Source of the DNA: Candidatus Shapirobacteria bacterium
Lineage (GTDB): Bacteria; Patescibacteriota; Microgenomatia; UBA12405
Assembly (NCBI GenBank): GCA_017992115.1
Contig: JAGOPG010000003.1
Coordinates: 1-40,137, forward strand
DNA length: 40,137 nt
Direction of reading: 5' to 3'
Position numbers and translations under genes: made by a program. The number at the start of each line of letters is the position of its first letter. The stretch's first letter is position 1. The notes below the pieces were generated by a model that was not told the DNA's origin, searched no databases, and saw nothing but the letters and a program-made list of their open reading frames with translations. Positions 10,037 to 36,873 of this stretch are shown piece by piece.

Positions 10037-10045
10037 GATTTCATT

Positions 10046-11122: not shown

Positions 11123-12200
11123 CTTTTGAGTATAACAAGGTAGAGTATTTTTTTTCTATATTTATAGCTAATCCCATAGCTGCAAAAAGATTAATAAGCG
11201 AAGAACCTCCGTAAGCGATAAAAGGAAAAGGGATACCAGTTAGGGGGATTAGGCCGACAATGGCGGCAAAATTAATAATCCCCTGAAAGGCGATCCAGGA
11301 TGCAATTCCAAAAACCAGAAGTTTTTCATAATCATGAGCAGCTACTTGAGCTAAACGAAAAAGGCGGGAAATAAGGATTAAAAATAAATAGGTGATCAAA
11401 ATTAAACCAATGAAACCCATTTCTTCACCGATGATAGCCAATATTGAATCAGTACTAATTTTAGGAAGGAATTTATATTTATGATCAGAGTTGGCAAAAC
11501 CTTTGCCGGTAATTCCCCCAGAAGCAAGTGTTAAAACCATTTGTTGACTGTGATAACTGAGATTTTGATTTTCCTGTTGGTTTAGCAGGGTTTTTAAACG
11601 ATCAAGACGATAGGGAGAAACTAAAACTAAAATTACAGAAGTTAGTATGAAAAACAAGGAAGGAATGAGTATATCTTTTATTGAAGCTCCGGACAAAAAA
11701 TAAATGCAAAATACTATTGCGCCTATCAAAATTGCGGTGCTAAGATTTGGTTCCAAAACAACAAGAAGCAATGGTGGTAAAAGATACAGTAATAGACTAT
11801 TAAAATTTTTTTTATCTTCGAGAGTAAAAAGATATGAAAAGAAAATTACTGAGACCAGTTTAAAGAATTCTGAAGGTTGGAAATTAAAGAAAGAAAAACT
11901 AATTTGTCTTTTGGCGCCATAGGCTTCTACACCTAACCCGGGAATAAAAACTAGAATTAAAAAAATTATACCCAATAAATATAATCGAAAAGAATTTTCT
12001 TTTACTAAATTTAAATTTATTTTAGAAGTAATAAAAAGTACTATTAAGCCGATAAGCAGCCAGAGAGATTGTTTTTTGATGAAAAAATAGGGATCACCTA
12101 TATCTTTTGAAGCCTCAAAAAGTGAAGATGAAGACATAAACAAGAGTCCGATTATACTTAAGATTAAAACGTATATAAAAAGCAAGGAAAAACGTTTCAT
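11067..12200 (-). CDS. ftsW: SEDS-family lipid II polymerase FtsW
   Basis: PSEFFKL, EPNLSTAIL, DSILAIIGEEMGFIG and PLTGIPFPFIAYGGSS. The dcw context fits. The tail overlaps murG by 56 nt. The start shares ATGA with the stop of the ATP-grasp gene. Confidence 0.85.
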   Translation of the reverse strand: MKRFSLLFIYVLILSIIGLLFMSSSSLFEASKDIGDPYFFIKKQSLWLLIGLIVLFITSKINLNLVKENSFRLYLLGIIFLILVFIPGLGVEAYGAKRQISFSFFNFQPSEFFKLVSVIFFSYLFTLEDKKNFNSLLLYLLPPLLLVVLEPNLSTAILIGAIVFCIYFLSGASIKDILIPSLFFILTSVILVLVSPYRLDRLKTLLNQQENQNLSYHSQQMVLTLASGGITGKGFANSDHKYKFLPKISTDSILAIIGEEMGFIGLILITYLFLILISRLFRLAQVAAHDYEKLLVFGIASWIAFQGIINFAAIVGLIPLTGIPFPFIAYGGSSLINLFAAMGLAINIEKKYSTLLYSKDDQNSPSRSHRNSHHSSR

Positions 12201-13282
12201 TTGAATTTTTTTAGATGTTCTTCATTAATAGTTTGCACTTTATTGGTTATGATTTTAAAATCTTCTATTTTTTGGGAAATAGTTCCTGAAGGATTTCTCT
12301 TGGTTATTTGAGAGCCAATTAAATTAGGATTATCAAAACGAGACTGTTCTTTTTTGAGATTAAATTCATAATCTAATGGTATAAATTGGGCTAAATGATG
12401 GTAAAAAAGCGGGGTAAGACCAGCTTTTTGTTCTATATAAGTGTAAAAAGCAAAAGAGGCGGTTAGGCGTGGATTGCATTCAAGTAAATAAATTTTTTGA
12501 GGAGTAACTAAAAAATCAAGTCCAAAGAAACCGAGATAATTTAGGGGTTGGAGAATTTTTTTTGAAAAATTTTGAGTTATTTTTTTTATTTGACGAAGTT
12601 GTGATTTGTGGAGAAGTGAGGGCCACTGACGTCCTACGGTGGCAAAGGGATTGCTGGTTAGGGTTGGAATTCCTGTAAATTGAAGAGCGGGTGGGCTTTG
12701 CAGGAGACCTTTTTTTGTTTGGCAACAATTGTTTAAAACAGAAAAACCCTGAATATAAGGGGAAAACTTAACCAGCATATTTTTTGGAATGTGTTTTTTA
12801 GCAGAGGTGTAATTATCAAAATTGTAAGTACTATTACCTGCCCACCCAAAATGGCTTTGGATGACTAGATTTGAGCCGTAAGCTTGCTGGGCTTTTGAAA
12901 AATTTTTTTGATTAAAAGGTAAAATTAAACTATCTATCAGAGGTAATTTAGCTTTTTGGCATTGTTGATAAAATTTAATTTTATCTTCCAGTAGACGATT
13001 ATTTTTGGCACTGGGAGCTGCTAGTAACCAGTGATTTTTTTGACAAATTTTTTCTATTTTGGCGGAAGGTTTAAAGGGAACGATTACTGGATTGGCAAAT
13101 GACTTGATATTTTTTTGAATGTTTTTATCTGCCAAAAGTTTTCCACTATTTTTATAGGTTAATTTTTTTTTACTGACACTTGTAAAATTTGGTATTTCGG
13201 GAAGAGAAATATCTAAAAAATTTTCGACAACTAAAAAGAAAAAATGATACGGTGACGATTTTATAGCTTGAGTGAGGGTCAT
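12197..13282 (-). CDS. ATP-grasp carboxylate-amine ligase, specificity unknown
   Basis: LEDKIKFYQ.., LVIQSHFGWAGNS, SPYIQGFSV and GFFGLDFLVTPQKIYLLECNPRLTAS (E-x-N-P-R type Mg/ATP site). I place the start at ATG 13282, not 13360, because it forms ATGA with the stop of the upstream gene. Confidence 0.65.
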   Translation of the reverse strand: MTLTQAIKSSPYHFFFLVVENFLDISLPEIPNFTSVSKKKLTYKNSGKLLADKNIQKNIKSFANPVIVPFKPSAKIEKICQKNHWLLAAPSAKNNRLLEDKIKFYQQCQKAKLPLIDSLILPFNQKNFSKAQQAYGSNLVIQSHFGWAGNSTYNFDNYTSAKKHIPKNMLVKFSPYIQGFSVLNNCCQTKKGLLQSPPALQFTGIPTLTSNPFATVGRQWPSLLHKSQLRQIKKITQNFSKKILQPLNYLGFFGLDFLVTPQKIYLLECNPRLTASFAFYTYIEQKAGLTPLFYHHLAQFIPLDYEFNLKKEQSRFDNPNLIGSQITKRNPSGTISQKIEDFKIITNKVQTINEEHLKKFK

Positions 13283-14073
13283 TGACGTTGGGTTCCAGTA
13301 CAAACAATAACTGGATAATTTCCTGCAAGGGAAGCATTTTGTTTGTATGCTGCCAGGCAAAGAGCAGACTCGGATGAGAGAAAATGTCCTTTTAATAATT
13401 TTTGAGATTCGATAATGGCTTGGTTGTTGATAATAAAAGCTGTTGATTGGTGTTTTTTTATGATATTAATAATTTTATTTTTTAGGGGAAGAGATTTTAC
13501 TGTTAGGGCATCGGTGATGATTTTGTTTTCTGGTTTATAATTTTTGACGAAATATTTGGCAATAGTAGGATTGGCTGCACTTTGAACCCCAAAAACTTTA
13601 ATGTTTTTGGGTAAAGCTTGTGCAATTCCAAGTAATGTGGTGCCACTGCCGACGGGGATAAAAATGCTACTAACTTGTGGTAATTGTTCAAGTATTTCTT
13701 CACCAATCTGGCGGTATCCTAAAAGAGCACTTGGATCAGTAGATTGACGTAAATTATAAGCATGATTTTTTTTAGCAAATTTGATAGCGTCACTGATAGC
13801 TTTTTTAGATTTGATTACAGAAGCAGAAATTAATTTAAGTTTTTGGGGGTTAATCGAAGGAGAAATAAAAACGGTCAATTTTATATTTTGTAAGTGACAA
13901 AAGTGAGCTGCAGAGATGGCAGCATTACCAGTTGAAGAAATTACTGCTTGAGAATATTTTTGTTTTTGGAGATTTTTAAGTTGCTCTATAATGGCTCGGT
14001 CTTTAGCTGAGCCGGTAAGGTTTTTATCTTCTCTTTTTAAGTAGACTGAATTAAATTTTTCTAAAGGAGTCAT
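13279..14073 (-). CDS. PLP-dependent enzyme, fold type II (threonine synthase / cysteine synthase / racemase-like), short form
   Basis: Schiff-base lysine context YLKREDKNLTGSAKDRA (compare NPTGSFKDR); SSTGNAA; Gly loop PVGSGTT; DPSALLGYRQIGEEILEQL resembles the threonine synthase core. Only 264 aa. Confidence 0.7.
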   Translation of the reverse strand: MTPLEKFNSVYLKREDKNLTGSAKDRAIIEQLKNLQKQKYSQAVISSTGNAAISAAHFCHLQNIKLTVFISPSINPQKLKLISASVIKSKKAISDAIKFAKKNHAYNLRQSTDPSALLGYRQIGEEILEQLPQVSSIFIPVGSGTTLLGIAQALPKNIKVFGVQSAANPTIAKYFVKNYKPENKIITDALTVKSLPLKNKIINIIKKHQSTAFIINNQAIIESQKLLKGHFLSSESALCLAAYKQNASLAGNYPVIVCTGTQRQ

Positions 14074-14080
14074 ATATAAT
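14051..14080 (+). promoter_or_regulatory. candidate promoter for the plus-strand LysW-like ORF
   Basis: Perfect TATAAT at 14075-14080, 27 nt upstream of ATG 14108. A weak -35 TTAAAT lies at 14051-14056 with an 18-nt spacer. The AT-rich context makes chance occurrence likely. Confidence 0.2.
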
Positions 14081-14107
14081 AATATAGTTATATTTTAGCT
14101 AATATTT

Positions 14108-14272
14108 ATGAAAGGCGCTAAAGACAAAGTAATATGTCCTGATTGTAAATCAGTTATTAATAGTAAAGATGCAGCTGTTGGTGATATTTTGGAATGTGAG
14201 GAATGTGGCACTGAGGTAGAAGTGTTGTCTATCAAACCATTAAAATACCGGGAATTGATTGAGGAGAAGTAA
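14108..14272 (+). CDS. LysW-like zinc-ribbon protein (possible amino-group carrier protein), 54 aa, not in the ORF track
   Basis: My own translation is MKGAKDKVICPDCKSVINSKDAAVGDILECEECGTEVEVLSIKPLKYRELIEEK. CPxC...CxxCG with GDIxxC..CG.E.EV...PL follows the LysW/ArgW pattern. It is the only ORF I found by eye covering the gap between the flanking minus-strand genes (14074-14231). The tail lacks the canonical EDWGE. Confidence 0.55.
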   Translation: MKGAKDKVICPDCKSVINSKDAAVGDILECEECGTEVEVLSIKPLKYRELIEEK

Positions 14273-14801
14273 TTCGGTAAATACCATCGTATTTAAAATT
14301 TTTGTCATTGATATCAAATTGCCCGTAATGAACTTTGCGACCTGCCCGAGAGCTTTCGACATAATAAATTTTGTTTTCAACTTTTTCAATAATAAAGATA
14401 ACGTGGCCTCCTTTTTCTTGACGAATTAAGTCGGCAGTCTGAGCATCCTTTATATTTATTTTTTTAGAAAGCGGGGCAGAAGTGAGAATGTCGGCGGAAG
14501 TTTTTCGAGGGTTGAAATTAGTTTTAAGGTAGAAATTAAGTAGTTGGACAGTCAAACCAGAGCAGTCAATTCCAATTTTATGTTTTTTTTGAAAATTGTA
14601 AATTTGAGTTGGAGTCATATTGATGATTTTTTTATTATCCGTGTTTGCTAATTCTATGGTTTTCAGGGCGATTTCTTTGGCATTACCCTTGCCAACTAAA
14701 GCAATCTCAGGAAGGTATTTTTTGGTGACGTTCATGTAATAAGGAATGCCAATATATTTATCTATTTCTTTATAAAGTTCTTCTAATTTAGACCTAACCA
14801 T
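14232..14801 (-). CDS. NlpC/P60-family cysteine peptidase/amidase, no signal peptide
   Basis: Catalytic Cys context GIDCSGLTVQLL, downstream His in GGHVIFII, then YYVESS. The N-terminus MVRSKLEELYKEID is hydrophilic. I prefer ATG 14801; the track's 14867 start lies inside mraY. Confidence 0.6.
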   Translation of the reverse strand: MVRSKLEELYKEIDKYIGIPYYMNVTKKYLPEIALVGKGNAKEIALKTIELANTDNKKIINMTPTQIYNFQKKHKIGIDCSGLTVQLLNFYLKTNFNPRKTSADILTSAPLSKKINIKDAQTADLIRQEKGGHVIFIIEKVENKIYYVESSRAGRKVHYGQFDINDKNFKYDGIYRITSPQSIPGILMV

Positions 14802-15817
14802 AGACCAAAAATTGCTAAAATAATTGCGGCTAACCAAGCACGGAATACAATTTTGGGTTCTTCCCATCCAAGTTTTTGCAAAGTAAGGTGAATTGGAGCT
14901 GCTGGAAAAATTTTCTTGCCACGATACTTTTTACTGATAATCTGTATAGCACTACTGAGACCTTCTACTATAAAAGGCATGCCAACAATTATTAAGGGAA
15001 TAATTTTCCCTAAAAGAAGAGCTATAAGTGCAAAGGTGGCCCCAAAGGAAAGGGAGCCAACATCGCCCAATATTATTCGAGAAGGATATACATTAAAATA
15101 TAGAAAGGAGATGAGAGCACCAATCCAAAGAGAGAGAAAAAGAGATATTGGTGTATCCAAGGAAGTACCAGCTAAAATCCAAAAAGCAAAAAGTGCAATC
15201 AATAAAATTCCGCAAGATAGGCCGTCTAGTCCATCAGTAATATTAAAAAAATTGGCAAAGGCAACAATAATGGTGGTACTAATGGGAATAAAAAAGAGGC
15301 CAAGAGTAATGGCACCTAAAAAAGGCAGGTAAATGAAATGAATACCAAGTTTGAAGTAAAGAAAAAAAGATATAAATAAGGCAAGAATGATTTGAAGTAT
15401 CAATTTATGTTTCATTCGAAGGCCAAAAAATCCGTTTTTTTCAAAACCAAAAAACTTGTGAACATCATCATATAAACCCAGTAGACCGAAACTAATGAAA
15501 GTGAAAAAAATGATAAAAATCTCGTTTAATAGATTAAAATTACTGGAAATAAAGATTCCTGAAATCTTAAGTAGTTGAAAAAGAACAAAAAAAAGTATGG
15601 TAACAGAAAAGATAACTAATAATCCCCCACCGGAGGGAACACCAGCTTTAATGGAGTGGTATTTATCAAAAATTGGAGTGCTTTTGTTTTGAAAATCGAG
15701 TGTTTTTTGTTTTTGACGCTGAAATTTGAAGTGATAAAGAAGATTAATAAAAGGGACAACCAAGATGCTTGTAGCGATAAAAGCAAATAATAGTAGTCCA
15801 AGAAAAAGATTAATCAT
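14783..15817 (-). CDS. mraY: phospho-MurNAc-pentapeptide translocase MraY
   Basis: Polytopic membrane protein with NFFNITDGLDGL, GDVGSLSFGA and a PAAPIHL-like HHH-region remnant. dcw context fits. Confidence 0.9.
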   Translation of the reverse strand: MINLFLGLLLFAFIATSILVVPFINLLYHFKFQRQKQKTLDFQNKSTPIFDKYHSIKAGVPSGGGLLVIFSVTILFFVLFQLLKISGIFISSNFNLLNEIFIIFFTFISFGLLGLYDDVHKFFGFEKNGFFGLRMKHKLILQIILALFISFFLYFKLGIHFIYLPFLGAITLGLFFIPISTTIIVAFANFFNITDGLDGLSCGILLIALFAFWILAGTSLDTPISLFLSLWIGALISFLYFNVYPSRIILGDVGSLSFGATFALIALLLGKIIPLIIVGMPFIVEGLSSAIQIISKKYRGKKIFPAAPIHLTLQKLGWEEPKIVFRAWLAAIILAIFGLWLGLN

Positions 15818-17142
15818 GTTTTGATATATTTTATACTAGCACCTAATGAGCATAAACGTTCAGCTAGTTTTTCATAACCTCTCTCGATGTATTCAACATT
15901 ATTGATAAGACTCTCCCCTTCTGCGGTTAATGCAGCCAAGGTAATACAGGCACCAGCGCGTAAATCGTTGACATCAAAAGTTGATGCTTTTAGTTTATTT
16001 GGGCCATAAATTTTTACTCCATGAAAATATTCTGGTTTGTCGGTGTCTAGATTAAACTCATAATAAGTTTCAGGGTGTTCAACAATGGGGTTGAAAAGGG
16101 TGGTTTTAACCCCCATTTTATTCAAATAGGTAATGTGTTGGAAGCGGTAAGGATAGACTCTCTCTATAATAGTACTGACACCAACAGCTTGAGTTAACAA
16201 AACTGAAAAAACGGCTTGCCAGTCGGTCATAAAACCTGGTTCAGGACCGGTTTCTATATTAATAGCACTTAGAGGTTTTACCCAAGAGACGGTTACTTCA
16301 TCGCTTCCACGGTTGATTTTTGCCCCCATTTTCTCGATGGTATCTAAAAATGTTTTGATAATATTTGGATTTACCCGAAGGATATTTACAGAACCTTTGG
16401 TAGCGAGGGCAGCGCAAGCAAAGGTGACTGTTTCATTCCTGTCAGAAATTACTTGATGGCTGGTACCATGGAGTTGACTTACTCCATTTACAATAATAGT
16501 TTTTGGATTTTTTGGATCGCGTTTAATATCTGCCCCCATGGAATTGAGCATGACGATTAAATCATCAATTTCTGGCTCTTGAGCACAGTTTTCAAAAATA
16601 CTCTGTCCGGGTGTCATGGCGGCAGTCATTACAATGACTTCGGTTACAGTATGGCTAGGTTTATTAAAAACATAATGAGTTGTCTTTATTTTGTCTGTAG
16701 AAAATATCATCAAATCTTTTTCAAATGTTGTAGAAATTCCCATTGTTTCGAAACAATCAAAAAGACGGTCCAGGGGGCGGGCACCTAAGCGATCACCTCC
16801 TGGTGTGGGTATAATGGCTTTACCGGTTCGGACCAAAAGTGGTGCTGCAAAAATAAACGAGGTTCGGGATTTTTCTCCGGTACCATGAGGAACAGTGGAT
16901 GATTTAATTTTTTTAGTTTGAATAGTAATGCCATGTTCGCCATCGTTTGTTATTACAGATCCCAGACTTTTGGCAATACTATTTGTAATCCGAACATCAG
17001 AAATTTGAGGAACATTGAGTAAGTGACATTCTTCTTCGGTTAATAGGGTGGCTATTAATTCTTTGTATGAGGCATTTTTTGCACCTCGTATGGAGACTTC
17101 ACCGATTAAAGGATTACCTCCTTGGATGATGTATCTTGACAT
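15814..17142 (-). CDS. murA: UDP-GlcNAc 1-carboxyvinyltransferase MurA (Asp at the fosfomycin-target position)
   Basis: IQGGNPLIGEVSIRGAKNA, the active-site loop PTPGGDRLGARPLD and LRAGACITLAAL. Length and architecture are typical of MurA. Confidence 0.9.
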   Translation of the reverse strand: MSRYIIQGGNPLIGEVSIRGAKNASYKELIATLLTEEECHLLNVPQISDVRITNSIAKSLGSVITNDGEHGITIQTKKIKSSTVPHGTGEKSRTSFIFAAPLLVRTGKAIIPTPGGDRLGARPLDRLFDCFETMGISTTFEKDLMIFSTDKIKTTHYVFNKPSHTVTEVIVMTAAMTPGQSIFENCAQEPEIDDLIVMLNSMGADIKRDPKNPKTIIVNGVSQLHGTSHQVISDRNETVTFACAALATKGSVNILRVNPNIIKTFLDTIEKMGAKINRGSDEVTVSWVKPLSAINIETGPEPGFMTDWQAVFSVLLTQAVGVSTIIERVYPYRFQHITYLNKMGVKTTLFNPIVEHPETYYEFNLDTDKPEYFHGVKIYGPNKLKASTFDVNDLRAGACITLAALTAEGESLINNVEYIERGYEKLAERLCSLGASIKYIKT

Positions 17143-18429
17143 TTATTTTTTAAAATAATTAATAACTTTTTTGAAAATATTTAAACCCTCTTGTCCTCCG
17201 GAACTAAAATGAACAAGTATTTCATTTTTTTTAAGTGTTTTTTGATAATGATTGAGAACATCGATTGGTAATGGTAAATAAAAACTGTGGGGAATAATTT
17301 TTAGATAATCCTTGGCTGTTAAGCGAATTTTATATTTGTGGTTAAAGTTGAGTTTATAAATTACGGTTTCGGAAGATAGTTCTAAAGCTTTGGCGAGTTG
17401 TTTTATACTATCGGGATGTTGCATAAAGGAAGCATGACTTTCATAAAATACCTTGATTTTTTTTTGAGGATAATGTTTAATTATCGTTTTAATAGTGGCT
17501 TCAATTCTTTTTGCAGATTGAGAAAAATCATCGATAAAAATATTATTTTGATTTTGAAAAAGTATTTCAGCCCGTCTTTTGATGCCTTTAAAATCGGTTA
17601 AGGCATTTTGAGTGATTTGTGTATTTAGTAATAGTTTTTGACAAAGGGTAAAAACAGCACCTAAATTCTGGAGATTATAATCCCCAATTAACTGGCTTTT
17701 AAATTTAATTGGTTTATAGGGAATAGTAGGACATTTAGCAGATAATAATAAGGGAGGTATCTGTTTGTCTTGAGGGTTGTAAATAATTAAACCGTTTTTG
17801 GGAAGGCTATTAATTAATTTCTGAAATGCTTTTAGATTTTCAGTAGCAGAGGTATAACTTTCTTTGTGTTCCCAGTTAACACTGGTCAAAATAAGGTATT
17901 TTACTGGATAATAGAGGAATTTTGCTTTGACATCTAAACCGTTAATAGATTCGTCACCTTCTATTATCGACCAGTCTGAATTAGAAAAATTTAATGAAGG
18001 TATAGCATTTATAGCTTGACCACCAAACATGTATGCTGGATTCAGGTGGTGTTTTTTAAAACAATAAACCAAGGCAGCGGTAGTGGTTGTTTTACCAAAA
18101 GACCCGGCAACGACAATAGAATTTTTTTTGGTTAACATTTTTGCTAAATATTTAGTTGCTGATATATACGGAATATTAAGTTCTCGAGTTTTTTCATACT
18201 CTTCTCTTGTTCTAGAAAAACTTTTATAGGATGAACCTACTATTACCAAATCAATATTTCGATTAATTTGTTGGTGATTTATGGGAATTTTGGCTTTCTT
18301 TAATTGGGTACTAAAAGGAGGAAAAATGTTATCTTGATCTGAGCCAGTAATTTCATGACCTGATTTCTTTAAGGCTATAGCCAGAGGTGCGGCCATAGAA
18401 CCAGCGATTCCAATAATATGGATATGCAT
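17143..18429 (-). CDS. Mur ligase of the MurC/Mpl type
   Basis: N-terminal Rossmann IHIIGIAGSMAAPLAIALKKSGHEITGSD; IPYISATKYL; P-loop VVAGSFGKTTTTA at about residue 113. DDFSQSAKRIEAT sits where MurC/Mpl have DD[YF].HHP. Confidence 0.7.
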   Translation of the reverse strand: MHIHIIGIAGSMAAPLAIALKKSGHEITGSDQDNIFPPFSTQLKKAKIPINHQQINRNIDLVIVGSSYKSFSRTREEYEKTRELNIPYISATKYLAKMLTKKNSIVVAGSFGKTTTTAALVYCFKKHHLNPAYMFGGQAINAIPSLNFSNSDWSIIEGDESINGLDVKAKFLYYPVKYLILTSVNWEHKESYTSATENLKAFQKLINSLPKNGLIIYNPQDKQIPPLLLSAKCPTIPYKPIKFKSQLIGDYNLQNLGAVFTLCQKLLLNTQITQNALTDFKGIKRRAEILFQNQNNIFIDDFSQSAKRIEATIKTIIKHYPQKKIKVFYESHASFMQHPDSIKQLAKALELSSETVIYKLNFNHKYKIRLTAKDYLKIIPHSFYLPLPIDVLNHYQKTLKKNEILVHFSSGGQEGLNIFKKVINYFKK

Positions 18430-18431
18430 GG

Positions 18432-19034
18432 CTAATTATAAGATATCCATTGATTATTAACAAAGTATTCAAAATTGGGAAAGTTTCTTTTGTAAAAACC
18501 TAATTTATTTTTGGGGTTGAAGCGACCCAGATAACAATACTTTAATTGCTTAGCGGCGCTATCGATGGCCGTTTGAAGAGCAAGCCTGATGGGTAGATCC
18601 TGATGAGCGTATTTTGGATTATAAAAAACATAGGCAATATGGGAAAAATTCTTCTCAAAGAGGCAAAGTGAGTAGGCAACCACCTGATTTGTAATAGTGT
18701 CTGTCCAAATATAAAGATAATTAAAAATATGATTCTTAAAAACAGTTTTTATGGAAGAAGAGGGAAAATCCCAATTTAATTCCTTAACCCACGAATGGAT
18801 AGTTTTTTGTAAAGATGGAGTGTATTCGAAAGTACTTAAAGGAACTAATTGATGAGTAAAATGTTGGGTTTTTTTTAGAATACGACGATTTTCTGATGAA
18901 AGTTGAAAATTATCTAATTTTGAGCGTGAGGAAAAATTATCATCGGTATAAAATAATTTTTTTTGATTGCGTTGAGGCAACCATCCTTGTTGGTAATTTT
19001 CTTCAAGACTTAGATTATTTTGTAAATTAAACAT
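18432..19034 (-). CDS. Bpt/ATE-family (arginyl/leucyl-tRNA protein transferase-like) GNAT-fold protein
   Basis: FQLSSENRRILKK, VVAYSLCLFEKNFSHIAYVFYNP and YCYLGRFNPKNKLGFYKRNFPNFEYFVNNQW resemble the ATE_C/Bpt core (..S.S.RR.., A.Y.F..P, YLGY....M.YK..F.P.E.....W) as I recall it. The Cys-rich ATE_N motif is absent. Confidence 0.5.
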   Translation of the reverse strand: MFNLQNNLSLEENYQQGWLPQRNQKKLFYTDDNFSSRSKLDNFQLSSENRRILKKTQHFTHQLVPLSTFEYTPSLQKTIHSWVKELNWDFPSSSIKTVFKNHIFNYLYIWTDTITNQVVAYSLCLFEKNFSHIAYVFYNPKYAHQDLPIRLALQTAIDSAAKQLKYCYLGRFNPKNKLGFYKRNFPNFEYFVNNQWISYN

Positions 19035-20277
19035 TTTTTTCCTTTAATCGGAAAGCAGTGCGAAATGCTTCGGTTTCAGACCAGGGGTATTCGGTTTTAC
19101 CCAATAAAATCGATGTTTCATGACCTTTTCCACAGGCAATAATGGTGTCTCCTGATTTGGCGATTTTGACAGCTAAATTAAATGCATCCTGACGGTTTGA
19201 TAATTGAGTGTATAAAAAGCCACTTTGGTTTTCCGGGAATTTATCGGCTTCAAAATAAGTTGATTTTTTAGGGTTTATCCCGGAAATAATTTGAGCATTT
19301 ATAGTGTTGATATTTTCATTACGGGTGTCGTCGGATGTGATTATGGCAATATCAGCAATTTTTGAAACGACATCACCCATTAGAGGACGTTTGCTTTTGT
19401 CGCGGCCACCAGTAGCCCCGAAAATAACAATTAATCTTCCTTTTACACTTGGTTTTAGAGAAGATAAAACCTTGGATAAAGCGTTGGGGGTATGAGCAAA
19501 ATCAACTATACAACGAAGATGAAGGTTGTTGTCGACCAATTCTAATCGGCCTTTTATTTCCGGGAAATGGGCTATAGTTTCGGCAAAAACATTTGAGTCC
19601 AGTTTTAGTTCAGAAAAGGCTGAGAAACAGGCTAAGATATTATATATTTGATAATCGTAATTAGAGTCCGTTATAAAATTGTGGCGATTAATTCTGAAAG
19701 TCATATTTTCTGGAGTAATTTTAATTCTGTCTGCAGTGTAATCTGATTTGTTTTTAAGGCCATAAGTTTTAAATTTAACATTAAGAGATTTTTTTATATC
19801 TGAAAAATATTCATCATCATGATTGAGAATGGCTAATTCAGATTGGGTAAAAAGTTTTTCCTTGGCTTTTACATATTGATCCATGTTTTTGTAATAATCC
19901 AGGTGTTCGTGGCTAATGTTGGTAATAATGCCAATTTTAAAATTACATCCCCAATAACGAAACTGACTTAATGCGTGAGAAGTAACTTCACAAACTACAT
20001 GAGTGTAGCCAGATTTAGAAAAATCATATAAAATTTTTTGCAAAATTTTGGGTGAAGGGCTGGTTGTATGCAATCCGGGACTGTTGATAGTGCTAATGAC
20101 TCCGGCGTGTATACCACTGTTTTCTAATAATTTTTGCAATAGTGTACAGGTGGTTGTTTTTCCATCAGTACCAGTTACTCCAATCAGAGTTAATTTGCGA
20201 CTGGGAAAGGAATAGTAGAAATTCCAGAAGATGGCTTGAGGTAAATGCCAAAGCCAATTTTTTAGGGTTTTGAGCAT
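19027..20277 (-). CDS. murE: MurE-like Mur ligase lacking the N-terminal UDP-binding domain
   Basis: FYYSFPSRKLTLIGVTGTDGKTTT (P-loop Lys at residue 40), VDFAHTPNAL, FGATGGRDKSKRPLMG and TSDDTRNE (the DNPR position). Confidence 0.7.
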   Translation of the reverse strand: MLKTLKNWLWHLPQAIFWNFYYSFPSRKLTLIGVTGTDGKTTTCTLLQKLLENSGIHAGVISTINSPGLHTTSPSPKILQKILYDFSKSGYTHVVCEVTSHALSQFRYWGCNFKIGIITNISHEHLDYYKNMDQYVKAKEKLFTQSELAILNHDDEYFSDIKKSLNVKFKTYGLKNKSDYTADRIKITPENMTFRINRHNFITDSNYDYQIYNILACFSAFSELKLDSNVFAETIAHFPEIKGRLELVDNNLHLRCIVDFAHTPNALSKVLSSLKPSVKGRLIVIFGATGGRDKSKRPLMGDVVSKIADIAIITSDDTRNENINTINAQIISGINPKKSTYFEADKFPENQSGFLYTQLSNRQDAFNLAVKIAKSGDTIIACGKGHETSILLGKTEYPWSETEAFRTAFRLKEKNV

Positions 20278-20290
20278 ATGGGCTTATGAA

Positions 20291-21868
20291 TTATAGCAAG
20301 GAGTCCAAGTCTCTGGCGAGACTAAACCATAAAGGAGCAGCGGTAGATGACCCCCATTGAGATGCTTTTGGATTGTTCAAAGTAACAATCATGGTAAATT
20401 TAGGCTGGTTACAGGGATAAAAGCCTATATAAGAGCCGATAGTATTGTCTTCTTGATATTCACCTTCAACAGCTACTTGGGCGGTACCACTTTTGGCGCA
20501 AACAATCATGTCATCATCTTTTAATTTGGAAACTGGACTATTATTGACGCCATAAATTAACAACTTTTTTACAAAATCTGTTGTCTTTGTAGAAAAAACT
20601 GAAGAAGATTGGATTGGTGTGTTTTGATTTATGTGAGCTTTGACTAATTTTCCATCGTTTGCTAGTGTATTAAAAGCTTGTACCATTTGTAATTGGTTGA
20701 CAGCAATACCTTGACCAAAAGAAGCGGTGGCGAAATCTATGTCTGACCAATAGTCTTTAAGGGGTGAGATTGATTCCCCCACTAGTTCAACGCCAGTTTT
20801 TTGATTGAATTTGAGACGTTGGTAATATTCGAGGAATTTATTTAATCCCATGGCGCTGTTGATATAGCTCATACTAATATTGTCGGAATTTTTGATGGTA
20901 TCGAAAAGGTTGGTATCAGGATGAACTTGTTTGTCCCAATTATTTATAGTATATTCACCGATTTTCCGTGGTTGATTACAGTTTGGACAGTTCCAGTTTT
21001 GATTAATACTATTTGAATCCAAAGCAGAGGCAATGACTAGGGGTTTAAAAATTGATCCGGGTTCAAATAGATGACCAATGTTTTTTATGGTAAAGCTGGC
21101 ACTAGGGCTAGCTTCAACTGTCGCCATGGCCAATATTTCTCCACTTTGAGGTTCAAGAATAATTAGAGAGGCAGATTCAGCTTGATAAGTGGCAAGACCG
21201 ATTTTGAGTGTGTCTTCAGCTAATTTTTGGATTTTTCTATCAATGGTAGTGTGTAGATCCTGGCCATCTATTTCATTTTTTTGCCAATTTTTCCGTGTTA
21301 ATAATCCAATTCCGGTACCATCGACTACGTTTCTTTTAAATCCTACTTGACCACTAATTTGTTTTAAATATTTTTTTTCTAAATTTAAAACTAGATCCTT
21401 GGCCAAATCCCCTTCCGGATAATAGCGGCGTTGTTTCAGTTCAAATTCTAATCCGCTGGTTTTGGAGAGTTTATTTTTCTCAGCTGTATTAAACTCACCT
21501 TTAAATTGAAGCCATTTTTGATTAGGATTTTTAAATTTATCAATTAATTGAGCATTTTGGGTGGCAAAATCGCTTTTAATTGAAGTAATTTCTGTTAGGA
21601 TTTCATCAAGGTCATTTTTAAAATTTGGTTTATATAGGGCTAAACTATAATAACTGTAACCAAGGCTTAAGGGATATTTATCGCGGCTCAGGATTTTACC
21701 CTGACGAGGGAAAATTTTTACAATCTTATATATTTGAGATAAGGCCTGTTCGTGTAATTCCTGGCCAGAAATTACTTGGATGTAAAATAATTTTCCTAAT
21801 ATCAGGGAAAATATAATATATAAAAAAATTAAAAGGATTTTAGGGCGTGATTTGTCCATTGATAGCAA
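20291..21868 (-). CDS. ftsI: class B penicillin-binding protein (FtsI-type transpeptidase)
   Basis: N-terminal TM; SxxK in GSIFKPL; SxN in KNSDNIS; KSG in AKSGTAQ. The track start at 21868 is TTG; ATG 21859 (MDKSRP..) is an alternative. Confidence 0.85.
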   Translation of the reverse strand: MLSMDKSRPKILLIFLYIIFSLILGKLFYIQVISGQELHEQALSQIYKIVKIFPRQGKILSRDKYPLSLGYSYYSLALYKPNFKNDLDEILTEITSIKSDFATQNAQLIDKFKNPNQKWLQFKGEFNTAEKNKLSKTSGLEFELKQRRYYPEGDLAKDLVLNLEKKYLKQISGQVGFKRNVVDGTGIGLLTRKNWQKNEIDGQDLHTTIDRKIQKLAEDTLKIGLATYQAESASLIILEPQSGEILAMATVEASPSASFTIKNIGHLFEPGSIFKPLVIASALDSNSINQNWNCPNCNQPRKIGEYTINNWDKQVHPDTNLFDTIKNSDNISMSYINSAMGLNKFLEYYQRLKFNQKTGVELVGESISPLKDYWSDIDFATASFGQGIAVNQLQMVQAFNTLANDGKLVKAHINQNTPIQSSSVFSTKTTDFVKKLLIYGVNNSPVSKLKDDDMIVCAKSGTAQVAVEGEYQEDNTIGSYIGFYPCNQPKFTMIVTLNNPKASQWGSSTAAPLWFSLARDLDSLL

Positions 21869-22049
21869 ACTTGGAGGCGTATTCTATTTCCAGATTTTGA
21901 TTGTCAATATTTAACTGTTCGTATTTTTGGCTTAAATTAGCATATTGTTGATTCATATTTATTATATTTATCGAGTAATAAATAGAAAATATTATTTGAA
22001 AAATAATTAATGCCAGAGCAACAGCGACAAGACTTTTATTTAGTGTCAT
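21840..22049 (-). CDS. ftsL: FtsL/DivIC-like septation protein
   Basis: Small bitopic protein: a TM segment (LVAVALALIIFQIIFSIYY) followed by the coiled-coil-like NQQYANLSQKYEQLNIDNQNLEIEY. The position between rsmH and ftsI fits. I prefer the start at MTLNK (22049) over 22106. Confidence 0.5.
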   Translation of the reverse strand: MTLNKSLVAVALALIIFQIIFSIYYSINIINMNQQYANLSQKYEQLNIDNQNLEIEYASKFAINGQITP

Positions 22050-22911
22050 GATTGATAAAACATCTAAACATGGCAGATCGGGAGAGTGGATTCCTTTTGA
22101 TCTCACTATACGATGCGGAAAATTTGTTTGATTTTATTTTATTTTTTTGAAGAAAATTTTTTACAATTCTATCCTCTCCGGAGTGAAAAGTGATAATACC
22201 TATCTTACCATCTTTTCTAACTATTTTTTGGGACGTGTTCAATAATTTTTGAAGATTATTGAATTCGTTGTTGACGGCAATTCGAAGAGACATAAAAATT
22301 TTTGTGGAGGGATTAATTTTTGAACGATAATGTTTTTTTTGATAATAGTTTTCGATAATGGTGGCAAGTTGAATACCTGTAGTGATAGGTTTCTTTTGTC
22401 GAGCTTGAATTATCTCAAAAACTAGTGGTTTGGCTAATTTTTCCTGGGAATATTTGGTAAATAAATTATAAAGTTGAAACTTGTCCCAAGTATTAATTAT
22501 TTCTTCAGCAGTTAATTTTTGTTTTTTGGGATTAAGACGCATATCCAAAGAGTCGGTATCAGAATAAGAAAAACCACGTTTTGTGGATACTTGTTGGTTT
22601 CGACTAAGGCCGAGATCAGCAAAAAGTGCGTCAAGGGGTATCTTTATATGACGAGAATATATTTGGTTTAGATTACTAAAATTACCTGATATTGGATGAA
22701 ATCTTTTATCCAATTTTTCTTTTTTAATTCTTTTGGTAGTAATTTCTAAATTAATAGGATCGTCATCAAGACCAAAAACAGTAGCTCCCTTTTTTAAAAA
22801 TTCTAATGTATGACCACCATTACCTAAAGTGCAATCTAGAATAGCAAGACCCTCTTTGGGTTGAAAAAAATTTAGGACTTCATCAAGGAGGACAGGTTGA
22901 TGATAGGTCAT
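22036..22911 (-). CDS. rsmH: 16S rRNA (cytosine1402-N4)-methyltransferase RsmH/MraW
   Basis: HQPVLLDEVL, DCTLGNGGH, ADLGLS and FHSGEDRIVK. Confidence 0.95.
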   Translation of the reverse strand: MTYHQPVLLDEVLNFFQPKEGLAILDCTLGNGGHTLEFLKKGATVFGLDDDPINLEITTKRIKKEKLDKRFHPISGNFSNLNQIYSRHIKIPLDALFADLGLSRNQQVSTKRGFSYSDTDSLDMRLNPKKQKLTAEEIINTWDKFQLYNLFTKYSQEKLAKPLVFEIIQARQKKPITTGIQLATIIENYYQKKHYRSKINPSTKIFMSLRIAVNNEFNNLQKLLNTSQKIVRKDGKIGIITFHSGEDRIVKNFLQKNKIKSNKFSASYSEIKRNPLSRSAMFRCFINHDTK

Positions 22912-22913
22912 GG

Positions 22914-23516
22914 TTATAGAGCCGGATTGACGACAAATTCGGCAGATTTATAGTCGCGATGTACTACATAGAAAGGTGAGTTTTTAGACGGTTTTTGGGA
23001 AAAATTTTCTTCCGGCCATGTAATTTGATTGCCAGATTTTTTAATATCAGCGTTACTTTTTAGAATGAAAGGTGTTTCGAAGGTAGCTACCTGATTTTCT
23101 TTGGTAGTTAATACAAGGCTTAAATTACCGCCATTAACACCGGTATCGTATTTGTATTTGCAACCATTGGTACAACTTTCGGTACCAAGAAGAATTTTTC
23201 GCTCAACTTTACCACTTTGTAGATCGCTATTTTCGATAACGCCTCCTGCACCTTTTTCGATTTGAATATTACCGTCGGTGGCAGTATAAGTTAGCTCATA
23301 TTCCATTCCTTGGATTTGCTCTGTAATTGAACTTATTATTAGTGTTAATTCATGACCATCATTTCGGGGAAATAAAGCAATATTTGGTCGATCGGCTTCT
23401 GCAAGTTCGATTGTTCGAGGTGCCGGGGTAGGAGTAACTGTTTGGGTAACCTTTTTTTTGCCACAGGCGGATAGGGTCAGCATGGCGACGGCTAAGATTA
23501 GAAAATATTTTTTCAT
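22914..23516 (-). CDS. lipoprotein of unknown function
   Basis: Signal peptide with lipobox MKKYFLILAVAMLTLSAC, followed by a T/P-rich linker. I recognise no catalytic motif. Confidence 0.6.
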   Translation of the reverse strand: MKKYFLILAVAMLTLSACGKKKVTQTVTPTPAPRTIELAEADRPNIALFPRNDGHELTLIISSITEQIQGMEYELTYTATDGNIQIEKGAGGVIENSDLQSGKVERKILLGTESCTNGCKYKYDTGVNGGNLSLVLTTKENQVATFETPFILKSNADIKKSGNQITWPEENFSQKPSKNSPFYVVHRDYKSAEFVVNPAL

Positions 23517-23520
23517 GCTT

Positions 23521-24837
23521 TTAGTTTAACTTTAATGATAGCCAAGTGTCAATTTCATCAATTTTAAGACGAATTTGTTTCATAGTATCCCGATCGCGAA
23601 TACTGACGGTATTATCTTCCAAACTTTGATAATCTATTACGGCACACCATGGAGTACCAATTTCATCTTGGCGACGATATTTTTTACCTATATTGCTACT
23701 ATCATCATAATCAATTGAGTATTTTTGGGATAGATCCTTATAAAGTTTTTGGGATAGTTTTAACAATTCTGGTTTATTGGAAGCTAAGGGAAAAATAGCA
23801 AGTTTATAGGCTGCAAGATGAGGATTAATTTTTAGAAAAATTCTAGTTTCACCGTTTTCTAGTTTTTCTTCTTGGTAGGCGTCGAGAAGTAGGTAGAAGA
23901 AGGGTCGATCAACTCCACTTGAACATTCCACAATGTGTGGTAAATATTTTTCGTGTGTAGACGGGTCGGTATATGCCAGATCTTGACCGGAGAATTTTTG
24001 ATGTTGGGTAAGGTCATAGTCGCCACGCCAATGGATTCCCTCCATCTCTGCCCATCCCCAAGGGGCTTGATATTCAATATCAAAAGCTTTTTTGGCATAG
24101 AAAACTAGTTCGTCTGCTTGGTGTTGGCGAAGACGGAGACTGTCTTTTTGATTGAATATTTTTTTATACCAATCCATTCTTTCTTTTTTCCAATAATCAA
24201 AATATTTGTCCATATCTTTTGGGTGGCAAAAGAATTGAATATCGGCCTGTTCAAATTCGCGTGTACGGTAAAGAAAATTTTTGGGAGTAACTTCATTTCT
24301 AAATGCTTTGCCAATTTGAGCGATACCAAAGGGAATTTTTATTCGACTTGAATCGACAATATTTTTGAAATCAAGATAAATATTTTGACATGCTTCGCCA
24401 CGAAGATATGCATGGATTTTTTCACCCTCAATCACGCCAATTTCAGTTTCAAACAGAATATTATATTTTTTACCTTCAGTTAATTTTTTACCACATTCAG
24501 GACAAACATTTTTGTTTTCGAGTAGATCGGTGCGGAATCTTTGGTGGCAATTTTTACATTCGACTATAGTATCGGTAAAATTTTTGACATGACCCGAGGC
24601 TTCCCAAACTTTTGGGTGAGAAATAATTGAACCGTCGATGAGGAGAACATCATTGCGACGCTGTATGTTGTCCCTTATCCACAAATCTTTAAAATTTTTT
24701 TTCATTAGGGAACCAATTGGACCAAAATCATAGAATCCCTGCAGACCACCGTAAATTTCGCTATTTTGAAAGACAATTCCCCTCCGTTTGCATAGTGCGA
24801 CTATTTTTGAAACTTTATCATCTTGTTTTGATGTCAT
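23521..24837 (-). CDS. glyQS: glycyl-tRNA synthetase (alpha2 type)
   Basis: IVFQNSEIYGGLQGFYDFGPIG; the Zn-ribbon-like insert CKNCHQRFR...CPECG; class II motifs FRNE and GVDRP. Confidence 0.93.
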   Translation of the reverse strand: MTSKQDDKVSKIVALCKRRGIVFQNSEIYGGLQGFYDFGPIGSLMKKNFKDLWIRDNIQRRNDVLLIDGSIISHPKVWEASGHVKNFTDTIVECKNCHQRFRTDLLENKNVCPECGKKLTEGKKYNILFETEIGVIEGEKIHAYLRGEACQNIYLDFKNIVDSSRIKIPFGIAQIGKAFRNEVTPKNFLYRTREFEQADIQFFCHPKDMDKYFDYWKKERMDWYKKIFNQKDSLRLRQHQADELVFYAKKAFDIEYQAPWGWAEMEGIHWRGDYDLTQHQKFSGQDLAYTDPSTHEKYLPHIVECSSGVDRPFFYLLLDAYQEEKLENGETRIFLKINPHLAAYKLAIFPLASNKPELLKLSQKLYKDLSQKYSIDYDDSSNIGKKYRRQDEIGTPWCAVIDYQSLEDNTVSIRDRDTMKQIRLKIDEIDTWLSLKLN

Positions 24838-24852
24838 AGGATATTATAACTG

Positions 24853-25416
24853 TTACTTAAAAGATTGGGGGCTATTAAGCGGTTTTTCGAGGATGGATTC
24901 AAAATATTTGCGGAGAAGAATTTGGGTTTGTTGATATTTTTTTTGTTTGTAAATTAAATCTATTTCTGACGGTAGACCATAACCCAGTTGTTCAATTAGA
25001 TTGATTTCGCTATCAATAAATTGAGAATAATTATTTTGAGAAATTGCTCTAGTGGCAACAGTTATTAGCCCATAAACTGTGGTCGAAGGTTCCGATAAAG
25101 GTAATAGTTGGTTAATTACTTCGTAAAAGAAAAATAAAAGGCCGTACTGTGATAATTTTTTGGGGTTATTTAAAAATACTTCAACTGCTTCTGATTCAGA
25201 CAACCAATAAAAATTATTTTTTTGATAAAGATGGCAGTTTATGAGATTTCCAATTTCCAGATGGCCCAAGCGACGGCTTTTAATCGATTGGGCGCCTTTA
25301 GCAATACAGTTTATTTTACCCAAAGATTTGGTGAAAAGTGTTACTAACAAATCCCCTTCCCGTCTCTTTCTTCGGTTTAGTACCAAAGCTTGAGTATTTA
25401 TAAAAGAAGAATTCAT
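24853..25416 (-). CDS. recO: DNA repair protein RecO (short form)
   Basis: The N-terminal OB-fold pattern ALVLNRRKRREGDLLVTLFTKSLGKINCIAKGAQSIKSRR is typical of RecO. The protein is only 187 aa. Confidence 0.7.
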   Translation of the reverse strand: MNSSFINTQALVLNRRKRREGDLLVTLFTKSLGKINCIAKGAQSIKSRRLGHLEIGNLINCHLYQKNNFYWLSESEAVEVFLNNPKKLSQYGLLFFFYEVINQLLPLSEPSTTVYGLITVATRAISQNNYSQFIDSEINLIEQLGYGLPSEIDLIYKQKKYQQTQILLRKYFESILEKPLNSPQSFK

Positions 25417-27365: not shown

Positions 27366-27384
27366 AGATAAATTTTATCATATG

Positions 27385-28053
27385 TCACCATCTGGAAATC
27401 ATGGCGAAGGGAGTCTTGAGAATGATGAGAATTTCCTGACGAATGGAACGGCGTTTGATGTACTCCGAATCCATTTGGGAACGTTTTTCAAAGGGTAATT
27501 CATTTCGACCGGATACCTGCCAGGGGCCGGTGATACCGGGTTTTACAGAGCGAATATCGTTTATATATTTTTTAGTATGTGGATATTTTTTGGAATATTC
27601 ATCGAGTTCAGCGTCGCGATAAGCTCTGGGACCAACTAAACTCATTTCCCCTTTTAATACATTTATAAATTGGGGCATTTCATCGATAGACGTATTGCGG
27701 ATAAATTTGCCAATGGGAGTAACTCGAGGATCTTCACTGGTAGAAAGCTTCCAATCATTAGCTTTATATTTTTCCCAAAGTTTGGGGTAATTCTCCTTAA
27801 GATATTTATCATTATCACCAATTCTCATGGAGCGAAATTTATACATAAAAAATTCCCGGTTTTGACCGACACGTTTTTGTTTGAAAATCACCGGTCCGGG
27901 TGAGGTTAGTTTGATAATCAGGGAAACGATTAACATTATTGGTGAAAAAATAATCAGGAGTATCAGGGAACTAAAAATATCAATGGTTCTTTTGATAGGC
28001 TTAAATAGGAAAACCCGGAGTTTGTATAAAGGAACCTTTTGATTATTACCCAT
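27385..28053 (-). CDS. polyprenyl-phosphate sugar-1-phosphate transferase (small bacterial sugar transferase / PGT)
   Basis: PGPVIFKQKRVGQN..FFMYKFRSM, DEMPQFINVLKGEMSLVGPRA and PGITGPWQVSGRN. Confidence 0.88.
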   Translation of the reverse strand: MGNNQKVPLYKLRVFLFKPIKRTIDIFSSLILLIIFSPIMLIVSLIIKLTSPGPVIFKQKRVGQNREFFMYKFRSMRIGDNDKYLKENYPKLWEKYKANDWKLSTSEDPRVTPIGKFIRNTSIDEMPQFINVLKGEMSLVGPRAYRDAELDEYSKKYPHTKKYINDIRSVKPGITGPWQVSGRNELPFEKRSQMDSEYIKRRSIRQEILIILKTPFAMISRW

Positions 28054-36866: not shown

Positions 36867-36873
36867 AAGCAGA

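Follow-up and report, generated by a model that had tools for sequence, protein, structure and literature searches.

Why should a gene for a homolog of the ATE/Bpt aminoacyl-tRNA transferases lie between two Mur ligase genes in the cell-wall cluster of a Candidatus Shapirobacteria bacterium? The cytoplasmic Mur pathway, in which MurC, MurD, MurE and MurF act in that order on UDP-N-acetylmuramic acid (UDP-MurNAc), is regarded as near-universal in walled bacteria and a major antibiotic target. To our knowledge, the tRNA-dependent steps of wall synthesis are limited to side-chain additions of the Fem type, and ATE/Bpt enzymes act only as taggers of protein N-ends. The gene in question belongs to the window analysed here, the whole 40,137-nucleotide stretch from contig JAGOPG010000003.1 (assembly GCA_017992115.1), a low-GC region (about 35%) in which the minus strand carries nearly all genes. 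What the comparison with related genomes brings out is that an enzyme of the ATE/Bpt branch is a fixed and ancient part of the wall cluster throughout much of the candidate phyla radiation (CPR), with a new set of partners. In the synthesis of the wall peptide it probably carries out a step that depends on tRNA and is coupled to the reaction of the Mpl-like ligase encoded directly downstream.

A shortened member of the ATE/Bpt superfamily

The open reading frame (ORF) for the ATE-like protein runs from an ATG at 19032-19034 to a TAG at 18432-18434 and encodes 200 residues. The murE-like gene upstream ends in a TAA at 19027-19029 and overlaps the start by 8 nucleotides (ATGTTTAA on the coding strand), and only 2 nucleotides separate the stop from the ligase ATG at 18427-18429. 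An earlier note, made from the sequence of the window, had described the same ORF and both junctions, and the co-organisation with two Mur ligases that it drew from them is upheld; its three quoted motifs, FQLSSENRRILKK (residues 44-56), VVAYSLCLFEKNFSHIAYVFYNP (118-140) and YCYLGRFNPKNKLGFYKRNFPNFEYFVNNQW (166-196), are all exact. A chance or spurious ORF was considered and rejected on the strength of conservation: 517 database proteins match at an E value of 1e-3 or below, the top 120 of them at 59-99% identity, and 56 columns are invariant in an alignment of 37 members. Named matches come mostly from Candidatus Shapirobacteria (CPR, Microgenomates), and relatives of the gene are present in 191 species-representative genomes. 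A scan for promoters and terminators returned nothing above the shuffled expectation, and the gene junctions carry no terminator. Short gaps or overlaps between the genes of the module are common across loci, the exact intergenic distances there being unreliable because ORFs called from the first start codon have over-extended N-termini.

Taken alone, the window sequence points only weakly to the ATE/Bpt superfamily. Pfam ATE_C (PF04377) matches at 23.4 bits (E=1e-4) and does not reach its gathering cutoff of 25; seven NCBIfam arginyltransferase models match at E values of 1e-7 to 2e-3, far under their cutoffs, and the best score against the Bpt equivalog models (NCBIfam PRK01305) is 31.5 bits against a cutoff of 205. 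ATE_N (PF04376), FemAB (PF02388) and Leu_Phe_trans (PF03588) gave no match at E<=1. Some relatives do pass the ATE_C gathering cutoff (P0128 at 30.5, P0162 at 40.6 and P0171 at 27.4 bits). Searches of PDB sequences with the single sequence and with the family profile produced only meaningless matches (Cas4, neurofibromin, spike), and it was the fold search that supplied the link to ATE1. The AlphaFold (AF2) model is a single 200-residue domain of high predicted quality (pLDDT 94.4, pTM 0.90), and its best Foldseek matches in the PDB are human, yeast and K. lactis ATE1 (E 1.5e-9 to 1e-5, TM-score on the query 0.65-0.71), followed by the aminoacyl-tRNA-dependent synthase domains of MprF; FemX lies outside the top 50. 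Comparison of the family profile with canonical Bpt by hhalign gave a probability of 99.6% and an E value of 8.7e-25 over residues 34-200. The homology that the earlier note had proposed from the three motifs is thus settled by the profile alignment and the ATE1 fold matches taken together, and both a hit within the ATE/Fem clan and a matching fold are in hand. By profile and predicted fold, the window protein belongs with the ATE/Bpt aminoacyl-tRNA transferases, as a divergent member of the superfamily with a shortened N-terminus.

The residues that are kept, and those that are lost, say more about what such a protein may do. In K. lactis ATE1 (klAte1), the catalytic Lys304 follows Tyr303, has its counterpart in F304-K305 of FemX and cannot be replaced by Ala (K304A is inactive); tRNA is bound by the basic alpha3 helix, the pocket for the acidic acceptor comprises R80, Y87 and Y25, a four-Cys zinc site is formed by C23, C26, C95 and C96, and ATE/Bpt enzymes ancestrally aminoacylate Asp or Glu at a protein N-terminus, on the alpha-amine (PMC9351520). 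The residues G17, R22, R37, Y168, G170, Y181, K182 and W196 are invariant across all subfamilies and canonical Bpt, and the pair Y181-K182 corresponds to klAte1 Y303-K304 and FemX F304-K305. A basic helix at residues 47-55 (SENRRILKK) is the predicted tRNA-binding element, the stretch SSENRRILKK matching klAte1 alpha3 at the sequence level, and R50, R51 and I52 are conserved to at least 90% across the superfamily. In an alignment that contains a 3-residue insertion, R22 stands opposite the first Arg of GFRRSG, which is probably klAte1 R80, and Y29 opposite Y87; the region of Y25 is absent. Gone, too, are the zinc Cys residues together with about 35-40 N-terminal residues, as the earlier note had seen: the first Cys of the window protein is residue 124, and the first 90 residues hold 4-5 Cys in canonical Bpt and 0-2 in the CPR groups. 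On these residues and the predicted fold, the protein is very likely an active aminoacyl-tRNA transferase, though not an ordinary Bpt.

The positions of the donor pocket map to I133/H132, L151, T155 and C167, none of them acidic, and the pocket would appear bulkier than that of the Leu-specific Bpt. Arg was accordingly rejected as an unlikely donor. Given a mapped pocket that is both bulky and without an acidic residue, the comparison suggests a small neutral amino acid, of the Ala or Gly type, as the donor.

A constant partner

An exhaustive profile search of 1.84 billion representatives returned only 213 hits in four groups: the Shapirobacteria type of about 200 residues (group a), proteins of about 250-265 residues (group b), proteins of about 215-235 residues (group c), which in Parcubacteria such as Magasanikbacteria number more than 2,000, and canonical Bpt, which appears only near an E value of 1e-7. 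Relatives in other CPR lineages are only 23-39% identical and have the same ligase alongside. A context survey of 80 species-representative loci of the Shapirobacteria type (49-89% identity) found the ATE-like gene next to the ligase in every one of them, within the conserved order glyS, lipoprotein-like gene, rsmH, (ftsL), penicillin-binding protein (PBP) gene, murE, ATE-like gene, ligase, (murA), mraY, NlpC/P60-like gene, a gene for a pyridoxal phosphate (PLP) enzyme, ATP-grasp gene, ftsW, murG and ftsA. A metagenome scan with one group (b) protein as query recovered only 8 loci. Group (b) loci, whose ATE-like proteins are 31-34% identical, have the identical murE / ATE-like / ligase slot, followed by murB, murA, murF, mraY and the NlpC-like, PLP-enzyme and ATP-grasp genes. 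In Parcubacteria, five of six contexts run murB (opposite strand), ATP-grasp, NlpC/CHAP-like, mraY, ATE-like, ligase, a gene for a 54-residue protein (opposite strand) and PLP enzyme, mraY lying directly upstream of the ATE-like gene. The upstream neighbour thus changes from murE to mraY between lineages, whereas the downstream ligase is constant. In one lineage the two are even fused through a Pro/Ser linker (P0121), in a gene present in three assemblies in the same division and cell wall (dcw) context.

The probable functional partner of the ATE-like enzyme is the downstream ligase, as the 80 loci, the distant subfamilies and the fusion indicate. The link to cell-wall genes that had been read from one genome extends to all 80 surveyed loci, to two distant CPR subfamilies and to a fused gene; far from lying only outside cell-wall clusters, the homologs are regular members of them.

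Individual loci vary around this arrangement. A RimK-type ATP-grasp gene and a gene for an S-adenosylmethionine-dependent methyltransferase stand between the ATE-like gene and the ligase at L083 (8696-10284), and a gene for a DUF2238 protein does so at L100 (10663-11277). P0171 (809 residues) joins an ATE-like domain resembling group (b) to two further domains, PPDK_N (ATP-binding) and a mobile domain of PEP-utilisers. L093 (9956-10627) lies among genes for MutS, Mfd and an M3 peptidase, and L101 (10001-10747) has a major facilitator superfamily transporter and a peptidyl-tRNA hydrolase nearby; the ATE-like family is not exclusively tied to the cell-wall module. Many of the species-representative metagenome-assembled genomes with a Shapirobacteria-type locus are titled 'uncultured Gammaproteobacteria bacterium' (L001, L003, L004, L006 and others), and one is titled 'Candidatus Methanoperedens sp.'; such titles probably mark mislabelled or contaminated bins.

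What kind of ligase the partner is can be judged from published diagnostics. Mpl enzymes join preformed peptides and accept L-Ala-D-Glu; they are recognised by an Mpl-only loop, (S/T)AFFDKRSK, by Tyr35 and by a non-Gly residue in GI(C/G)GTFM, and MurC has an L-Ala site made of His376/Arg377/Arg380 in H. influenzae numbering (PMC3060825). All 91 ATE-adjacent ligases carry an Mpl-type loop of 10-11 residues (11 in E. coli Mpl, 4 in E. coli MurC) and 90 of them the Tyr35-type Y/FPP motif; the H-R-R triad of MurC is found in none of the 91, where H-S-Q, N-G-R or the like stand instead. Among E. coli proteins, Mpl and never MurC is the best match for each of 93 ligase sequences. The best solved relative of the window ligase is PaMpl (3hn7), and for a Parcubacteria ligase PaMpl and MurC tie. 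Scores against the family models are low in either direction (154-233 bits for TIGR01081, cutoff 388.7; 191-271 for the murC model, cutoff 335), and the Mpl residues of the C-terminal domain are only partly kept. A plain MurC was rejected on the loop, the missing triad and the E. coli ranking.

An apparently rearranged Mur pathway

The MurE-like ligase of the window is itself unusual. Its TIGR01085 alignment (334 bits) begins at model position 76, tblastn matches begin at residue 85-101 of E. coli MurE, and roughly residues 10-100 of the E. coli protein have no equivalent. The MurF-like protein of group (b) similarly lacks roughly residues 12-92 of E. coli MurF; L087:15034-16275 is an example of a domain-less gene from that group. 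No separate ORF can supply the missing MurE domain, the PBP gene and murE being only 13 nucleotides apart. The N-terminal domain of MurE and MurF binds the UDP moiety, and Mur-type ligases that do without it, such as MurT, FolC and CapB, act on non-nucleotide substrates. The specificity motif of the MurE-like protein is DDTR in 75 of 77 loci, in place of DNPR (the E. coli form) or DNPA, which keeps the Arg typical of ligases for diaminopimelic acid (DAP).

With E. coli queries and neighbourhoods of about 20 kb, MurD, MurC and Ddl were best-assigned in none of 100 sequences, and MurF was found in only two, both group (b) loci. One group (b) cluster holds murA, murB, the Mpl-like gene, murE, murF and mraY and no murD. 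In the window, murD, murF, canonical murC, murB, ddl and ftsQ are not at their usual places in the dcw cluster (7643-24837), and the slot of murD, between mraY and ftsW, is taken by the NlpC/P60-like, LysW-like, PLP-enzyme and ATP-grasp genes. The gene for MurA is within the cluster, after the Mpl-like ligase, a slot that it occupies in most, not all, related loci. The genes concerned are listed in Table 1.

Table 1. Genes of the window around the ATE-like transferase, with the evidence for each assignment
Feature	Position	Strand	Evidence
ATP-grasp ligase	12197..13360	-	Pfam ATP-grasp_3 E=1e-8; NCBIfam PRK06524-like E=2e-23
Fold-type II PLP enzyme	13279..14073	-	Pfam PALP E=8e-41; under all NCBIfam cutoffs
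LysW-type zinc-ribbon carrier-protein homolog, 54 aa, tail ...EEK	14108..14272	+	Pfam Zn_ribbon_LysW, PDB LysW
Cytoplasmic NlpC/P60 (CHAP)-like cysteine peptidase homolog	14232..14867	-	Pfam NLPC_P60 E=0.017
MraY	14783..15817	-	Pfam Glycos_transf_4 E=5e-27; E. coli MraY tblastn match
MurA	15814..17142	-	Pfam EPSP_synthase E=4e-72
Mpl-like UDP-MurNAc-binding ligase, MurC/Mpl family, 428 aa	17143..18429	-	Loop, motif, PaMpl, E. coli Mpl
ATE/Bpt-like aminoacyl-tRNA transferase homolog, 200 aa	18432..19034	-	ORF, Pfam, NCBIfam, hhalign, AF2, Foldseek
MurE-like ligase, 416 aa, without N-terminal domain	19027..20277	-	TIGR01085, E. coli MurE alignment, tblastn

A carrier-like protein and its companions

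A further member of the module is a short ORF antisense to the operon, which lies where 158 nucleotides separate the NlpC-like gene from the PLP-enzyme gene. Each of the 68 loci that extend over this region has it, in antisense orientation every time, and its product scores 39.4 bits against Pfam Zn_ribbon_LysW (gathering cutoff 27), with 14 of 14 members matching the model and solved LysW chains in the PDB matching at an E value of about 1e-9. The C-terminus reads E-E-K in 59 loci, E-G-K in 7 and E-T-K in 2, so that E-x-K is invariant. LysW keeps the alpha-amine of its substrate, Glu or aminoadipate, shielded during activation of the side-chain carboxylate. Both this LysW-type protein and the ATP-grasp ligase co-occur with the ATE-like enzyme in all three subfamilies.

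The ATP-grasp ligase is kept in the module throughout these subfamilies, with a RimK-type replacement at L083; RimK-type enzymes are the family of the LysW-loading ligases LysX and ArgX. Its ORF is probably over-extended at the start into the PLP-enzyme gene, and a PDB sequence search with it found no match. The PLP enzyme, also kept in the module, resembles threonine synthase (the short archaeal type most closely), beta-replacement enzymes of the cysteine synthase/SbnA type and serine racemase, and its PDB relatives are threonine deaminase, cysteine synthase and serine racemase; one may speculate that the wall peptide receives from it a D-amino acid or an analogue of DAP, lanthionine for instance. 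The position of the NlpC/P60-like gene is conserved across loci, and the DCSG and His motifs of its product align with a Parcubacteria module protein of roughly 267 residues (BLASTP E=0.002) that has weak CHAP and NlpC hits of its own.

Towards the other end of the cluster, a glycyl-tRNA synthetase gene (23521-24837, minus strand) heads the genes in groups (a) and (b) and is not found there in Parcubacteria; its conservation could hint at a Gly-tRNA donor or be plain inherited synteny. About 70 related loci keep, between glyS and rsmH, the gene for a lipoprotein-like protein of 200 residues (22914-23516, minus strand, in the window) that has an N-terminal signal with Cys and no Pfam hit. Farther upstream, beyond the dcw cluster, comes a long run of surface-polysaccharide genes (25416-39119, minus strand), with DUF4012, a Bac_transf sugar transferase, a nucleotidyl transferase, several GT1/GT2/GT4 glycosyltransferases, a Wzy_C ligase-like protein and a hexapeptide acyltransferase.

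A proposed step in wall-peptide assembly

An aminoacyl-tRNA transferase can acylate only a free amine. Within wall synthesis, the relevant amines would be the side chain of stem residue 3, as in a Fem-type reaction, or the alpha-amine of an amino acid or peptide still free of MurNAc. The alpha-amine is preferred because it would explain the pairing and fusion with the ligase, the Mpl character of that ligase, the absence of MurD and the loss of the N-terminal domain from MurE and MurF, and because it fits the ancestral preference of ATE/Bpt enzymes for N-terminal Glu or Asp. In the reading favoured here, a charged tRNA would supply the ATE-like enzyme with a small neutral residue of the Ala or Gly type, which the enzyme would place as stem residue 1 on D-Glu, or on an off-nucleotide gamma-D-Glu peptide, at the free alpha-amino group; the Mpl-like ligase would then join the finished peptide to UDP-MurNAc, and the two enzymes together would replace MurC and MurD. 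That the enzyme adds residue 1 to an off-nucleotide peptide upstream of the ligase is a serious candidate whose chances lie somewhat below even, and donor, acceptor, sequence of steps and carrier role are given as we infer them.

A likely extension brings in the remaining members of the module. The LysW-type carrier may bear the growing gamma-Glu peptide on its C-terminal tail and would be loaded by the ATP-grasp ligase, while the MurE and MurF that lack N-terminal domains would extend the peptide and the NlpC/P60-like peptidase would release it. Such a carrier would aid off-nucleotide assembly, since gamma-activation of free D-Glu would need protection of the alpha-amine. The complete pathway, in which many CPR anchor D-Glu by its amino group to a LysW-type carrier, extend it, release it, cap it with the ATE-like enzyme and attach the product en bloc by an Mpl-type ligase, MurC and MurD becoming dispensable, is put forward tentatively and is, as a whole, rather unlikely to be right in every part.

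Several observations weigh against these proposals. We know of no D-configured acceptor for an ATE/Bpt enzyme. The LysW-type tail ends in Lys, not in Glu, and its chemistry may differ from that of LysW. The neighbourhoods covered span about 20 kb, and murC and murD could lie elsewhere in the genome; murE and murF are outside the Parcubacteria modules, and a MurE without its N-terminal domain may still bind UDP-MurNAc-dipeptide. Family members at L093 and L101 lie outside cell-wall contexts, and the equation of R22 with klAte1 R80 comes from a sequence alignment with its 3-residue insertion. The ligase, finally, might simply act as MurC: the window protein scores higher against the NCBIfam murC model (191.6 bits) than against mpl (154 bits), both under cutoff, and an overexpressed Mpl can also use L-Ala (PMC3060825).

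Competing explanations

The explanation that the earlier note had set first is a Fem-like one, in which Gly or an L-amino acid would be transferred from aminoacyl-tRNA to the epsilon-amino group of residue 3 in UDP-MurNAc-pentapeptide or lipid II, starting a bridge or branch. The part of it that stands is an aminoacyl-tRNA transferase tied to wall genes. The enzyme belongs to the same transferase clan as FemX and has its catalytic Lys; the gene is conserved in cell-wall clusters, directly after mraY in Parcubacteria, and glyS is conserved five genes upstream of it in the Microgenomates clusters. CPR envelopes are thought in the literature to be Gram-positive-like, the ATP-grasp and PLP pair could add a D-amino acid to a bridge, as ATP-grasp ligases do in some Gram-positives, and a carboxylate-binding Arg would also suit the D-centre of DAP. 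Yet branching leaves unexplained why the constant and even fused partner should be a first-step UDP-MurNAc ligase rather than MurF or MraY, and likewise the Mpl-type features of that ligase, the missing MurD and the missing N-terminal domains; the protein has no FemAB Pfam hit, FemX ranks outside the top 50 fold matches, and the DAP-type Arg of DDTR is retained in the MurE-like protein in 75 of 77 loci. DAP-type walls are usually cross-linked directly, Fem bridges being typical of Lys-type walls. A Fem-like branch is accordingly possible, not favoured, and on balance doubtful. The same note had offered N-end-rule tagging as its alternative. An ordinary N-degron transferase of the Bpt type, present in the dcw operon by chance and tagging proteins with N-terminal Asp or Glu for degradation, would fit the closest named families, which are arginyl- and leucyl-tRNA-protein transferases (annotations at JGI name relatives so), as well as the probable retention of the pocket Arg and Tyr and the two relatives outside cell-wall contexts. 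It is nonetheless highly improbable: the protein lies far under all equivalog cutoffs (31 vs 205 bits), has lost the zinc-finger Cys of ATE_N with about 35-40 N-terminal residues, and belongs to a distinct clade to which canonical Bpt comes only at E about 1e-7, and the linkage to the Mpl-like ligase is ancient, conserved and at one point a fusion.

Two further explanations keep parts of the same machinery and assign them differently. The enzyme could aminoacylate the LysW-type protein itself, for example at the epsilon-amine of its C-terminal Lys, or a carrier-bound intermediate, and so prime or extend a carrier-bound wall peptide or amino-acid derivative. ATE/Bpt enzymes do act on proteins, the LysW-like protein with its invariant E-x-K end co-occurs in all three subfamilies, and the side chain of the C-terminal Lys is the sole invariant amine on the carrier. 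The genes, however, are non-adjacent and the carrier is on the opposite strand; adjacency and fusion point to the ligase and not to the carrier, a LysW ending in Lys is without precedent, and the carrier N-termini are not conserved. This explanation is unlikely. A salvage route is a shade less likely again: the NlpC/P60-like enzyme would trim scavenged host muropeptides, the ATE-like enzyme restore the N-terminal L-Ala on gamma-D-Glu-DAP, and the Mpl-like ligase re-attach the product to UDP-MurNAc. Mpl is a ligase that works in recycling, gamma-D-Glu-DAP bonds are cleaved by NlpC/P60 enzymes, the metabolism of Shapirobacteria is described in the literature as very sparse, and the coupling of the ATE-like enzyme to the Mpl-like ligase fits as well as it does in the favoured reading. 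Salvage leaves the LysW-like carrier, the ATP-grasp ligase and the retained MurE-like ligase unexplained, no transporter is conserved in the module, and for the reaction of the enzyme itself it overlaps with the favoured addition of residue 1.

Relation to known systems

With Bpt and ATE1 the protein shares homology over residues 34-200, the ATE1 fold, the catalytic Tyr-Lys, the basic helix, the YLG motif and probably the Arg and Tyr of the acceptor pocket. It differs in size (200 residues against about 240-280 for Bpt or 500 for ATE1), in the loss of the four Cys of the zinc or Fe-S site, in forming a separate CPR clade and in its place in cell-wall operons, where it is once fused to a Mur ligase. 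The resemblance to FemX, FemABX and MurM is of another order: a common clan derived from the GNAT fold, the logic of the catalytic Lys, and a genomic tie to the synthesis of peptidoglycan precursors that is presumed to be functional as well. Unlike these enzymes, the ATE-like protein has no match to the FemAB hidden Markov model and is partnered with a first-step, Mpl-like ligase; Fem enzymes consist of twin GNAT domains with a coiled coil, and the ATE-like protein is a single small domain.

In Mpl recycling, L-Ala-gamma-D-Glu-DAP is joined to UDP-MurNAc. The ATE-paired ligase has the loop, the Y/FPP motif and the best matches of Mpl, and the step proposed for it is the Mpl reaction; it appears, however, to be the sole UDP-MurNAc ligase of its cluster and would therefore be biosynthetic. 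We know of no Mpl that is paired with an aminoacyl-tRNA transferase. The parallel with the LysW/ArgW systems lies in the 54-residue zinc-ribbon protein, which passes the Pfam LysW cutoff, and in the ATP-grasp ligase, of the RimK type at L083. The module departs from them in its E-E-K or E-G-K tail, in the absence of LysZ, LysY and LysJ homologs and in its cell-wall context; the tail of LysW is of the acidic ...EDWGE type, ending in the Glu that serves as the attachment site. Precedent within the clan for aminoacylating the amines of small molecules, as opposed to proteins or lipid II, is provided in the literature by VlmA, and DhpH-C/DhpK of dehydrophos synthesis and PacB are likewise tRNA-dependent formers of small-molecule peptide bonds. 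These enzymes differ in serving secondary metabolism, in belonging to the Fem/MprF-like branch and in having no link to a Mur ligase.

Implications

In the literature searched, no description was found of the ATE-like gene or its module, of a LysW-like protein in a cell-wall cluster or of missing Mur ligases in these lineages, and a published study of dcw evolution explicitly excluded the CPR. If the favoured reading is true, the locus would reveal a new function for the ATE/Bpt enzymes together with a new use of amino-group carrier proteins, and the whole pathway, if confirmed, would be categorically new. On the favoured reading, a group with a large share of bacterial diversity would reach its wall precursor by an alternative route. 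More broadly, the building of the wall in minimal, mostly uncultured cells becomes testable with a handful of recombinant proteins.

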